Virus record (IMG/VR): IMGVR_UViG_2531839666_000027
Length of the DNA: 24,381 nucleotides
From: a virus
Taxonomy: Duplodnaviria > Heunggongvirae > Uroviricota > Caudoviricetes
Strand: one strand, 5' to 3'
Positions 6,708 through 24,381 of this stretch are shown piece by piece. The first letter of the stretch is position 1; each line of letters starts with the position of its first letter. The notes beneath the pieces were generated by a model, which saw only the letters and a list, made by a program, of their open reading frames with translations, was not told the origin of the DNA and did no database searches. The translations under genes and the position numbers were made by a program.

Positions 6708-9021
<2,314 letters not shown>

Positions 9022-15027: not shown

Positions 15028-15203
15028 TCAGATTAAATTAATCTTGACATCATAGCTTTCAAGACCCGTCATTTTTTCCCGTGCGGTAAACTGAATACTG
15101 GTAACTTCTTTCCCGGTCTTTTTCTTAAGTTCAATAATTTTTTTGTTATATATTCAGAAATATCTGCTTCTGCTTTTGTTTTTAAGTTTTCAATATTCAT
15201 CAT
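15028..15203 (-). pseudogene. gnsB: gnsB-like gene with a 1-nt deletion in a poly-A run
   Basis: Hand translation: frame A gives MMNIENLKTKAEADISEYITKK then goes out of frame; frame B continues KKIIELKKKTGKEVTSIQFTAREKMTGLESYDVKINLI*. The two join into a 58-aa Gns-like protein only if the run at 15138-15144 is A8 rather than A7. Confidence 0.6.
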
Positions 15204-19280: not shown

Positions 19281-19480
19281 ATGACAGGAATTGTCAAAAA
19301 CTTTGACTACAAAAGCAGCAAAGGTCTTATATTCCCATCCGATGGCGTATCGATGCCCAGCTTCACGTTTCAGCTCTCAATCTTCGAGATGCAGAAGAAA
19401 TTACCACAGGATTACGCGTGGAATTTTGCTGGATAAATGGTTCGCGTGGACCTTCAACTGCCAATGTTTATCCCGGGATG
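19281..19480 (+). pseudogene. cspF: cspF-like cold-shock paralog relic: frameshift after codon 23 and loss of the normal stop
   Basis: ATG 19281 gives [22 protein letters not shown] then goes out of frame; the continuation ...[42 protein letters not shown] is in another frame and reads on into ORF 19418..19747. Confidence 0.5.
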
Positions 19481-19515
19481 AGATTCAATATCTCTATTGC
19501 CCCATTTAAAGCACA

Positions 19516-19549
19516 AAAACCCGCTTATAAGCGGGTTTTCTACTTTTTT
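19516..19549. terminator. bidirectional intrinsic terminator between convergent cspF-like and Q; candidate tR' of the late operon
   Basis: aaaaacccgcttataagcgggttttctactttttt: 8-bp GC-rich stem with T-tracts on both strands. Confidence 0.6.
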
Positions 19550-19585
19550 CTAAACGTCGGATACACAAAGCCCATCGTTGAGAAA

Positions 19586-19613
19586 ATCTTATCCATGTTT
19601 TTGAAAAATGCAA
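19586..19613 (-). promoter_or_regulatory. candidate Q-dependent late promoter (PR'-like): TTGCAT-16 nt-TAAGAT on the minus strand
   Basis: Hexamers read from the minus strand just downstream of Q and upstream of the terminator; placement follows lambdoid Q-PR'-qut-tR' architecture. Weak by sequence alone. Confidence 0.25.
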
Positions 19614-19644
19614 ACATCATGTCGCCATCTTCAGCAAAAATCAT

Positions 19645-20394
19645 TTATCTCGTCACCTTCCTCAATTGCGCTTCCGCGTATGCTTCTTCCTGCCAGCACT
19701 TTGTTACCAGTTTACCAATGACGTCCGCATACCCCTTATACCACTGATAATCGGTCAGGTCTGGTACCAGCTTCTGGACATGACGTCGTGCCAGCGTGGT
19801 CGGTAAACGACTAAACCGGTTTCCATTACAACGCCCACAAATCTTATATACCGGTACGCCATGAAACCGGTTCTTTTTCATCCAGAACAATCCCTTTACC
19901 CTTACACCCTCTGCACGCTGTGCTGACTTCGCCCTTACCATGGCAATGCTGACATAGTTCCTTCACCCATTCTTCCTTGATTACAGATTCCCCGCGTCTG
20001 TAGTGTTTCACCACTTCGCGCAATACATTATAAAATCCCGTACCTGAACAATGCTCACAGCGAGCCTTACTTGCCGCAGACCTGGAGTAATCAGCAAAGG
20101 CAAAATTCACGAGGTAAGGAATAATCTGTAACCGGATTTCTTCACTCAATTTGTTCAATGTCGGGTTATCCAGTGCCATCGCGTAATTTAGCAGGCCTTC
20201 AATCGCAAACTGAGCGTCCTGAACACCAACTTTTGCCAGAAATAAGGCCAACCCAAGTGGTGCTTTCGACTGCACCATCCCCTGCGCTGCCATTACATCC
20301 GTAATTGTTAAACAACCGGTGCCTGTCGCTGGAGCGTCATCGCTCAATTTTGGAGATTTTGGGGAGTAATATTTTGGTAAGGCTTCAAGGTTCA
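19645..20394 (-). pseudogene. quuQ: late antiterminator Q, split by a frameshift at an A5 run (19874-19878)
   Basis: Starts MNLEALPKYYSPKSPKL... at ATG 20394; frame 1 ends ...CRGCKGKGIVLDEKEPVSWRTGI*, frame 2 continues ...NRFHGVPVYKICGRCNGNRFSR...QLRKVTR*. An A4 run would give one continuous Q protein of about 250 aa with Cys-rich zinc-binding motifs. Confidence 0.65.
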
Positions 20395-20407
20395 TGCTCG
20401 TTCTCCA

Positions 20408-21495
20408 CTTACGCCAGTACGCCAATTGCCAGCGCGCGATCGATAAAACGAATATCAGCTCCAGTTGGGAGCCATACTTCTCTTCAAATGCCACTGTATC
20501 CGTATGCAGCTCGTTGTGATGCTTTCTGCACAAAGGCAACACAAAGAGATCATGTGCTTTTGTTCCCATTCCGCCCTGCCCGTGACCAATCAGATGATGC
20601 GGATCGTCGGCTGGCATACCGCAGCAAGCACACGGCTGTGTCTTAACCCAACGTGTGTATTTCTCCTTAACCCAGCGGCGACGTTTAGGCAGCTTCATGA
20701 AAGATTCCGGAGACTCTGGATCAACGGTGATGCTTACCACCGTCTTTTCCTGTGGTGTTTTTGTTGCTGGTGGGCGTAAGGCAACGGTGCAAGATTTTTT
20801 GTGCGTTGTTTCAATATGCTGGTGGCGGTCTGCTCTCCCGGTACGATGTCGCTTTCGCGGTACACCGAGCAGATTTTTTCCGCTGGTAATCCCAGCGAAC
20901 GACGCGATACAGCCTCAGGTAGTGCATCCACCACCTGATTGCAGACCGCCCACCAGGATAATTCAGCCAAAGATAATTCCCGCTCCTGCGTACCGCTTAT
21001 TGCGTGACGGATGACGTCAATCACCCATGCTGTCAGATTTTGTTGAGCAAGCAGCTCCAGTGATTCCGATGTCTGGTCACGCAGTTGGTTGTCGCAGTGC
21101 CAACACAACACCATTGCGCCGGTACCATAACGGTGAATGACTGTTTCAGAGTGATGGTAATCGCCATTAGGCCACTGGCAGGATGTAACATGACGTAATA
21201 GCCAGTCAGACAATGCGCCAACACCGCCAGCAGCACGAATCACCCGTTCGTTACTAAAAAACGGCAGCAATGTTTTGTCTTCCGCCAGCGACTGGCGAAC
21301 GGCAGGAACGACTCCGGATGGCAGATTACGCATGCTTTTTGGTTCCGGTTCCACCAGCACTCGAGGATTATGAAATATCTGTATGGATTCACGGCCCGGC
21401 TTAAGGACCACCAGCCCAAGCTCAGGCACCAGAACAGGTCTAAGTAATACCCGCACGTTACCTCCAGATCCGTTGCTGGAAAGTGCGGGACGCAC
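20408..21495 (-). pseudogene. ydfU: DUF968-family protein with C-terminal HNH-like motif (YdfU-like), carrying at least two frameshifts
   Basis: Three frames carry consecutive pieces: ...ILKQRTKNLAPLPY..., then ...TPQEKTVVSITVDPESPESF...CACCGMPADDPHHLIGHGQGG...CRKHHNELH...ELIF, then RFIDRALAIGVLA* (TAA 20410..20408). As sequenced, the reading frame runs straight into Q. Confidence 0.55.
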
Positions 21496-21736
21496 GTGGT
21501 GGGCGTTCGGAGTAAGGCAATCTGACTGAGATTATCCAGTGACGGTAGTCGAGGCTAAGGGCTTTCTTAACCTCGTATCCGCGCCTGCGGTAACACTGAA
21601 TTATCCATTCAGCCTGCTCTTCAGTGCATGGAGGGTGTTGGAACCATTCAGACTTGAATGCGTGAGAATACCGCTCGTGCGTGCAGACAAGAACGGGCGA
21701 ATTATCAGAATTGTAATATTTTACGTTGCGTGCCAT
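21458..21736 (-). CDS. hypothetical protein (92 aa); may be the true N-terminal portion of the ydfU-like gene
   Basis: ATG 21736 with GGAG 9 nt upstream; MARNVKYYNSDNSPVLVCTHERYSHAFKSEWF...; overlaps the next frame by 38 bp, and that frame lacks an ATG for its first 53 codons. Confidence 0.45.
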   Translation of the reverse strand: MARNVKYYNSDNSPVLVCTHERYSHAFKSEWFQHPPCTEEQAEWIIQCYRRRGYEVKKALSLDYRHWIISVRLPYSERPPRASRTFQQRIWR

Positions 21737-21802
21737 CGGTTTTCTCCGGTGGCACGGTGTTACTCAGCGGGAGTTCAGCCCCGCGCAAGATTGTAGATGA
21801 GT

Positions 21803-23100: not shown

Positions 23101-24381
23101 ATGGACGATATTAATATCAGCCTCGACGAACTTAACACTATTGATTTATCCCCCTTAATCCAGAGTAAGCTGCCAGTTACCTGCTTTGATATCACAAAGT
23201 ATCTTTCTAGCCTAGGTGATGGAAGAGCGGAGATAAGACTGCTAACCCATATTTGCGGTTTTCACTTTCGTCCCGAAAATCCACAGGTACCATTTGGTCC
23301 GTGCTTTCAAAGCAGCCAAGGTAGATCTGCAATTCCGGATGACATTAACGGGTTGTCGCTGGAGGTACTTTCTCAATTTTGCCCGACGATAGAGCTACCC
23401 GAACTTCAAGCTCGTATTGCTGATACACTTTGGGTTCGTAAAATTGGTGGAATCCGTTTTCCTTTGCTGGCAGTCCGTGCTTATTATGCGTCCAGTATAG
23501 CTATTATGACATCGCAAGGGACGTGGGTTAGTGCTTTAGAACGCCTAGAGCGTGCGCTTAGGCTGTGTTGTTTTTTTCGAAAGCATACTGATTTCAGGGA
23601 TGAATTTGATCAGCTTTCGGCACATCTACTAGCAGAGTATGAACGTACCAGAGAACAAGGCGATTCACCTTATCCGCTGCGACTCCTGCAACTCGATATC
23701 GACTGTAAAGTGAGTGAGCCATCTTTTATTGCCCAGGAACTCCTGTTTCTGACAAAAAACTATCTGGCTCAAAAATTATTTTCATTTGCCGTCGATGCCT
23801 GTAAAACCGCAATCCCGATTGCGAATAGGTGCTGTGACAGAGATACACAGTTTGAATTCTGGCGGCTTCTTGCCGATACACATCTGGAAGAGTCAAAATT
23901 CCAAGATGGCGGTATGATTTCGGCAGCCTGCATGCAGAATGCTATTGAAGCACTGGCTAATATTCCAGGAACCCGAATAGAACGTCTTGCGCTGTATGAA
24001 GAAATGCGTGATTACCAAATCGAATCCCGTCACCAGATGTCTATCCTTCAGTCTCCCCCTCAAGATATTAGTGAGATTGTCCATCAAGCCAAGAGTCGGG
24101 TAGTCGGAAGAGATTTGTTTGATATGGTTTTCAGACTTGCGATGCTGGTCTGTCGGCCAACCAGCATTGAGAGACTTAAGGCTCAAGCAATAGAACAAAA
24201 GGCCAACAGCATAGCTTGGATGTTTGGATCAACACATATTGATCATGAGGGAATGACACTTGCTCGCATACCCGCAGGATTGGGGATTGATGATGCAAAT
24301 GGGGCAGTTATTTGGCCCATAATGATGACGAGAATGCGTATTGAACCGCCCCGGTTTTCCGGGAGAGTGTTTTATCTGTGA
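23101..24381 (+). CDS. hypothetical protein, 426 aa, function unknown; opposite strand to the prophage late genes
   Basis: Complete ORF ATG 23101 to TGA 24379-24381, preceded by an AT-rich promoter-like region; no Walker A, HNH, DDE or other motif recognised by eye. Confidence 0.7.
   Translation: MDDINISLDELNTIDLSPLIQSKLPVTCFDITKYLSSLGDGRAEIRLLTHICGFHFRPENPQVPFGPCFQSSQGRSAIPDDINGLSLEVLSQFCPTIELPELQARIADTLWVRKIGGIRFPLLAVRAYYASSIAIMTSQGTWVSALERLERALRLCCFFRKHTDFRDEFDQLSAHLLAEYERTREQGDSPYPLRLLQLDIDCKVSEPSFIAQELLFLTKNYLAQKLFSFAVDACKTAIPIANRCCDRDTQFEFWRLLADTHLEESKFQDGGMISAACMQNAIEALANIPGTRIERLALYEEMRDYQIESRHQMSILQSPPQDISEIVHQAKSRVVGRDLFDMVFRLAMLVCRPTSIERLKAQAIEQKANSIAWMFGSTHIDHEGMTLARIPAGLGIDDANGAVIWPIMMTRMRIEPPRFSGRVFYL

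Follow-up and report, generated by a model that had tools for sequence, protein, structure and literature searches.

The window analysed here, a single stretch of DNA with a length of 24,381 nucleotides, contains a Q antiterminator gene that is divided between two reading frames, and this split very probably arose from homopolymer under-calling in the deposited draft assembly, a technical cause that is read from the pattern of the changes. The lesion itself consists of two one-base losses in runs and is private to the window sequence, in which every indel is a loss. Judged by its sequence, the gene is the Qin prophage's own ydfT/quuQ, a member of the Q-lambda family PF03589. Both the gene and the prophage are known, and the best account of the split is an assembly error, not a real feature.

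In the proposed course of events, the strain would carry the ordinary, intact 250-aa ydfT/quuQ of the Qin prophage, and a base caller or assembler would have under-counted two runs within the gene, with A6 read as A5 and CCC read as CC. The same under-counting would have affected more than a dozen other runs of the 24-kb window. The indels are deletions only, they are specific to runs and outnumber the substitutions, they are clustered, they break many unrelated genes, and they are private to one early draft; taken together, these properties are the signature of homopolymer under-calling.

The split ydfT/quuQ gene and its intact relatives

The earlier note on this DNA had described a Q-like gene which is split into adjacent frames at GATGAAAAAGAACCGG, and this description was borne out by the translation and by the match of both pieces to the Pfam family PF03589. 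An ATG at position 20395 on the minus strand opens the N-terminal frame, which begins with MNLEALPKYYSPK and comprises 183 codons and a stop, ending at 19844. The second frame (19869..19645, minus strand) comprises 74 genuine codons and a stop and reads ...RFHGVPVYKICGRCNGN...RKVTR. Both frames join at GATGAAAAAGAACCGG, at positions 19882..19867 of the minus strand. Of the coordinates given earlier, the junction at 19882..19867 was correct, but the range of 19645-20394 is off by one at its end, since the start ATG is located at 20395. The parts of the divided gene are the following:

19874..20395, minus strand: ydfT/quuQ codons 1-174, identical to the intact 250-aa protein; PF03589, 88.1 bits
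19869..19878, minus strand: the lesion, a net loss of 2 nt, with A5 at 19874-19878 (A6 in relatives) and CC at 19869-19870 (CCC in relatives)
19844..19873, minus strand: nine out-of-frame codons, EPVSWRTGI, and the TAA stop closing the N-terminal frame, from translation and alignment to the intact protein
19645..19869, minus strand: ydfT/quuQ codons 177-250 and the stop, in the other frame, with the fourth CXXC motif and the second half of the Q body; PF03589, 84.2 bits

The matches of the two pieces to PF03589, designated 'Antitermination protein Q', have E-values of 4.5e-25 (88.1 bits) and 7.3e-24 (84.2 bits). Both scores are well above the cut-off of the family (a gathering score of 26.7 bits), which shows that the split is no chance pair of open reading frames. 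An uninterrupted frame containing both the arm and the body of the protein is absent from the window, the Q frame being broken after codon 174.

For the comparison of the lesion with intact copies, three references were used: strain W2-5, aligned over positions 19400-21800 of the window, and the genomes CFIAFB20190167 and JNEC-KY202, both aligned in full. In the alignments to all three, the two base losses in Q lie 3 nt apart. The intact relatives give the ancestral reading as GAT GAA AAA AGA ACC CGG TTT, or ...DEKRTRF..., in a protein of 250 aa, and the intact product reads ...GIVLDEKRTRFHGVPVYK... at this place. The first 174 residues encoded in the window are genuine and run into EPVSWRTGI*, and residues 177-250 are found in the other frame. 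When the two bases are restored, the Q gene of the window is nucleotide-identical to the copies of W2-5 and CFIAFB20190167. The gene had been reported before as broken at an A5 run. The A-run is indeed one site of the break, but the break is not a single lesion, because a second loss, from CCC to CC, is present, giving 2 nt in all. The repair suggested at that time, a shortening of the run to A4 with the product ...DEKNRFHG... of 249 aa, restores the frame arithmetically, yet the relatives contain A6 and CCC. As an ancestral state, the A4 version was ruled out, because the window has lost 2 nt compared to its relatives and has not gained 1 nt.

The break is positioned between the third (C161/C164) and the fourth (C187/C190) of the zinc-binding CXXCXGXG motifs. 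In a phmmer search against the PDB, the third and fourth CXXC pairs of the intact Q were aligned with both CXXC pairs of Q-lambda, for which the zinc-ribbon arm has been assigned to residues 114-152 (PMC9388147).

Intact copies of the gene have been identified in a large number of E. coli genomes. A megablast search of positions 19600-20450 against 5,426 complete E. coli genomes revealed 2,496 records, 1,440 of them with at least 99% identity, and all 30 matches listed carried 'ydfT: antitermination protein' beside 'ydfU: DUF968 domain-containing protein'. The intact homologue is WP_001047131.1, a protein of 250 aa annotated 'ydfT: antitermination protein'. The intact 63-nt Q site was found exactly in 1,434 of 1,457 records from complete E. 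coli genomes; the 61-nt site of the window was found exactly in none of the 1,432 matching complete-genome records from the same 5,426 genomes.

On the protein level, the 90% cluster contains 1,699 members, and among the 15 of them that were listed, 11 have a length of 250 aa, the rest being proteins of 225 and 235 aa and this record's own entry of 298 aa. With tblastn, 247 of 250 matching phage records covered at least 80% of the Q protein, and every full-length phage match listed was a single uninterrupted piece. Homologues which end at ...WRTGI* or which are encoded as two genes were not identified among the cluster members and phage matches listed. Both Q fragments and the N-terminal fragment of ydfU were absent when about 15 billion proteins were searched.

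Deletions across the window and the deposited record

Between 19400 and 21800, no substitution separates the window from strain W2-5, and a single base is missing from each of five runs. Over its full length, the window was matched at 99.9% identity by four independently sequenced complete genomes, CFIAFB20190167, JNEC-KY202, FHI_NMBU_11 and JNEC-KY174, which originate from Canadian food, from Japanese clinical samples and from a human host. Compared to the closest of these, CFIAFB20190167, the full 24.4-kb window shows five substitutions and 15 indels. Each of these indels is a loss on the side of the window, and in 13 cases a single base is missing from a homopolymer. Shortened were seven of 34 six-base runs, one of seven seven-base runs, one of three eight-base runs and one of 106 five-base runs, and additionally two three-base runs and one two-base run; for runs of at least six bases, this amounts to nine of 44. 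Single-base losses hit none of the 12,992 single bases outside runs in the same comparison. At every deletion site, the independently sequenced genome JNEC-KY202 agrees with CFIAFB20190167.

The differences are also unevenly spaced. Three pairs lie less than 10 nt apart (15586/15592, 17444/17450 and 19871/19874), and for a random scatter of 20 differences over 24 kb about 0.16 such pairs are expected by estimate. When the annotation of CFIAFB20190167 was projected on the window, amino-acid substitutions were found in only three coding sequences. Six of 28 coding sequences (pinQ, terL, ynfN, rrrQ, ydfT and ydfU) are intact in CFIAFB20190167 and frameshifted in the window. For terL, the C4 variant of the window was present in one of 755 complete-genome records. 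Besides the lesion in Q, the one-base changes and their products are:

3208: one-base homopolymer deletion, frameshift in pinQ
12737: one-base homopolymer deletion, frameshift in terL
15586 and 15592: one-base homopolymer deletions, frameshifts in ynfN
17444: one-base homopolymer deletion, frameshift in rrrQ
19598-19602: one-base deletion downstream of Q, A6 to A5 on the gene strand, in the alignment to W2-5
20451-20452: one-base deletion in ydfU, AAA to AA (TTT to TT on the gene strand), in the alignment to W2-5
20758-20762: one-base deletion in ydfU, A6 to A5, in the alignment to W2-5
20409..21456, minus strand: ydfU (DUF968, 349 aa in relatives) with these two private one-base deletions, leaving A5 at 20758-20762 and AA at 20451-20452
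19844..20740, minus strand: spurious 298-aa ydfU'-Q' fusion ORF, composed of the C-terminal part of ydfU and the N-terminal part of Q

In the Pfam scan, the DUF968 match of ydfU is split over two open reading frames. The deletion at 20451 brings the end of ydfU into the frame of Q, and the fusion ORF is created by this deletion. Among the approximately 15 billion proteins searched, the 298-aa fusion has exactly one entry, EII21634.1, named 'antitermination protein [Escherichia coli 9.0111]'. E. coli 9.0111 is an O128:H2 strain with Stx2, and its genome is a draft of the J. Craig Venter Institute (JCVI) with the accession AEZZ, which was public by 2012. Drafts of about 2012 were commonly obtained by pyrosequencing, a method prone to the under-calling of homopolymers.

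The transposase of an IS3-family element in the window contains three further private deletions, of 7 nt (CCCGGGG), 3 nt (GGG) and 1 nt (T6 to T5), at 7037, 7066 and 7610. The 86-nt version of the window, which includes the 7-nt and the 3-nt site, was present in none of 1,632 IS copies in complete genomes, with a best identity of 90.5%. These two losses look more like a local fault of consensus or assembly. In our own reading, the 1-nt loss is located in an A AAA AAG-like run of the minus strand that resembles an IS3-type slippery site.

In the gnsB region, a difference in run length was also observed between complete genomes. At 15138, a T7 run is present in the window and in CFIAFB20190167, as compared to T8 in JNEC-KY202; the genome with T7 has a shortened 126-nt gene of the GnsA/GnsB family annotated, and the genome with T8 the full 174-nt gnsB. 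This reflects either real variation or the occurrence of run-length errors also in complete genomes.

Alternative readings of the split gene

The break in Q is truly present in the deposited sequence, and A6 runs are hot spots for slippage. It might on this basis be a genuine Q pseudogene private to strain 9.0111, generated by two replication-slippage deletions during the decay of Qin, possibly in a mismatch-repair-deficient lineage. The prophage was already defective, as seen from its IS3-cut capsid gene and its cspF remnant, so that selection on Q was probably weak; in a defective prophage of this kind, real frameshifts could accumulate, which also counts against an artefact. Furthermore, the losses in short runs (CCC and AAA, and CC elsewhere) are less typical of under-calling than those in runs of at least six bases. 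However, the genuine pseudogene is judged to be improbable. CFIAFB20190167 and JNEC-KY202 are intact at every site, and W2-5 is intact over the stretch from Q to ydfU. Natural variation would show the opposite of what is seen in the 24 kb, namely 15 deletions, no insertion and five substitutions, and at the same density, a whole genome would by extrapolation contain frameshifts in the thousands. The three pairs of lesions spaced by less than 10 nt likewise argue against a genuine pseudogene, and the 2.4 kb around Q without a substitution give no other sign of decay. The invariance of the Q site in 1,434 of 1,457 records argues against a natural hot spot at this place. If the lesion were real, the Q allele would be null, and the putative PR'-like late promoter could no longer be antiterminated. 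Missing from the N-terminal fragment would be the fourth CXXC motif, along with the part of the Q body equivalent to Q-lambda 153-207, its second half; C-terminal residues of Q-lambda within this range are needed for antitermination (PMC9388147). Even so, the finding would amount to no more than a private loss of Q, unremarkable in a prophage that is well known and already defective.

Still less probable, by a clear step, is a reading in which the deletions are real in the Shiga-toxin-producing strain 9.0111 and have a consequence there. The ydfU'-Q' fusion would retain three of the four zinc motifs together with the torus-forming region at the N-terminus. It might still attach to RNA polymerase and disturb the action of Q proteins from other lambdoid prophages in the same cell, the Stx2 phage among them. 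A functional split, in which full-length Q is obtained by programmed ribosomal frameshifting or transcriptional slippage, or in which the halves act as separate polypeptides, is given almost no credence. The frames do meet at an A-rich AAAAAG, but a +1 or -2 shift would be needed, for which no recognised signal is present there, and transcriptional slippage is inefficient on a run as short as A5. In addition, a single uninterrupted open reading frame is found in every cluster member listed except the record's own entry, and likewise in all the full-length phage matches and complete-genome annotations that were listed, and the same type of break occurs in five other unrelated genes of the window. 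Programmed frameshifting at the A-run of Q was rejected, since the arrangement is conserved in no relative.

Under-calling of homopolymers in the draft remains the preferred explanation, and the value of the finding lies mainly in quality control, the window coming from a draft with about one homopolymer deletion per 1.6 kb. The 'pseudogenes', 'gene fusions' and 'split genes' of the window, including EII21634.1, should be distrusted until they have been checked against the reads or against near-identical complete genomes.

The Qin prophage and comparison to known systems

The neighbourhood of the gene is that of the Qin cryptic prophage, with hokD, rem, ydfU, ydfT, a cspF remnant, cspB, essD, ydfR, rrrQ and rzpQ, and the prophage adjoins the chromosomal genes ydfJ and ydfI. 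It is defective, with a capsid gene (prohead protease/capsid) that is interrupted by an IS3-family element and with cspF reduced to a remnant. Earlier, the split had been regarded as consistent with a domesticated cryptic prophage. The defective Qin-type element was confirmed, as its capsid gene is cut by IS3; the split in Q as a mark of domestication was not, as none of the 1,432 records shares the site and the run deletions are one-directional. The chromosomal backbone in the window (ydfJ) contains no deletion, and with 1.3 kb it is too short to show whether the errors pass the limits of the prophage.

At the right end of the window (23101-24381), a DUF7380-domain protein is followed by another IS3-family transposase in the closest genomes. 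Upstream of hokD, the stretch retrieved from strain W2-5 carries a gene annotated as encoding a protein with a Kiwa KwaB-like domain. The right edge of Qin may be variable and contain defence-related cargo.

Downstream of Q, the following elements have been assigned:

19574..19613, minus strand: putative lambda-PR'-like late promoter, collinear with the Q-downstream region of phage DE3
19613-19608, minus strand: -35 element TTGCAT
19591-19586, minus strand: -10 element TAAGAT
19579-19574, minus strand: AACGAT, within CTCAACGATGGG
19516..19539, both strands: G+C-rich hairpin with T-runs on both strands, about 40 nt 3' of the pause-like element

The exact 12-mer CTCAACGATGGG is common to the window and to the region 3' of Q in the lambda-type phage DE3. 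The Q-downstream region of DE3 is taken here to hold lambda PR', with the names and positions of the lambda elements as we assume them, and AACGAT is presumably the sigma-dependent pause element of lambda. In the PR'-like region, the spacer has 16 nt compared to 17 nt in the relatives, due to the private deletion at 19598-19602, which leaves T5 in place of T6 on the plus strand. A scan for consensus sigma-70 promoters called none downstream of Q (the -35 element matches at 3 of 6 positions), and the region is a candidate PR'-like promoter by its collinearity with lambda-type DE3. For the hairpin at 19516-19539, the scan reported the plus strand, and the T-run of the minus strand was read directly from the sequence. 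On the minus strand, it is a candidate for a tR'-like terminator, and on the plus strand it may terminate the cspF remnant. Further downstream of Q, past the inserted cspF and cspB, the lysis genes essD, ydfR, rrrQ and rzpQ follow.

An open reading frame of 34 aa (19540-19644, minus strand), which is unannotated in the relatives, starts directly after the stop of Q (TAAATG). As a gene it was rejected, because it is present only through the A5 run; with the intact A6, it stops after 18 codons in our own translation.

Frameshifts from homopolymer errors are known from pyrosequencing, ion-semiconductor and uncorrected nanopore drafts. The window resembles these in that the changes are confined to runs, one-directional and private, in that indels far outnumber substitutions, and in that many unrelated genes are broken. 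It differs by the 7-nt and 3-nt losses in the multi-copy IS3 element, which are not simple run-length errors.

For the Q protein, the nearest known system is YdfT/QuuQ of Qin. The gene neighbourhood is the same, and the K-12 MG1655 records contain the intact 63-nt site. The only difference in the window is the pair of one-base losses at 19869-19878, which is found in no other record. A comparison with the Q proteins of Qin, phage 21 and phage 82 had been recommended earlier; Qin ydfT/quuQ was matched, and the families of the two phages, PF06530 and PF06323, gave no match. In the literature, PF03589 represents the Q-lambda family, PF06530 the Q21 family and PF06323 the Q82 family (PMC9388147). 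In Pfam scans with E-values up to 0.01, neither the Q fragments nor the repaired protein matched PF06323 (Q82) or PF06530 (Q21). Under the same threshold, the Q fragments matched only PF03589 and the cysteine-rich zinc-binding families PF00684 and PF25436, and the repaired Q matched PF03589 and PF00684. The repaired 250-aa protein reached 181.5 bits for PF03589 over two stretches, and for PF00684 (DnaJ central domain) 36.1 bits against a cut-off of 32.7. An assignment of PF03589 to the Q proteins of phage 82 was ruled out by the search against the PDB and by the published classification as the Q-lambda family (PMC9388147).

The identification of a Q-like antiterminator thus held, both by PF03589 and by homology to Q-lambda. 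With phmmer against the PDB, the intact Q matched Q-lambda (7UBM chain Q) with an E-value of 6.9e-36, residues 1-120 being aligned with Q-lambda 1-125 and residues 160-250 with Q-lambda 117-207, so that the homology extends over the N-terminal torus region, the zinc arm and the body. QuuQ and the Q protein of phage lambda (PDB 7UBM/7UBN, 4MO1, 7UBJ) are homologous over both halves, with about 33% identity in tblastn, and the region with the putative promoter and pause element is collinear 3' of both genes, with CTCAACGATGGG in common. However, QuuQ is 43 aa longer, and its arm contains four CXXCXGXG motifs compared to the single zinc ribbon of Q-lambda. The zinc arm of QuuQ comprises approximately residues 109-195 (about 19810-20070 in the window) and exceeds that of the solved Q-lambda structures by about 43 residues. 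For Q-lambda, it was shown that the protein loads at the Q binding element, with RNA polymerase paused at the sigma-dependent pause element, and forms a nozzle on the RNA-exit channel (PMC9388147). From the homology of the two proteins, a mechanism as for Q-lambda is expected for QuuQ.
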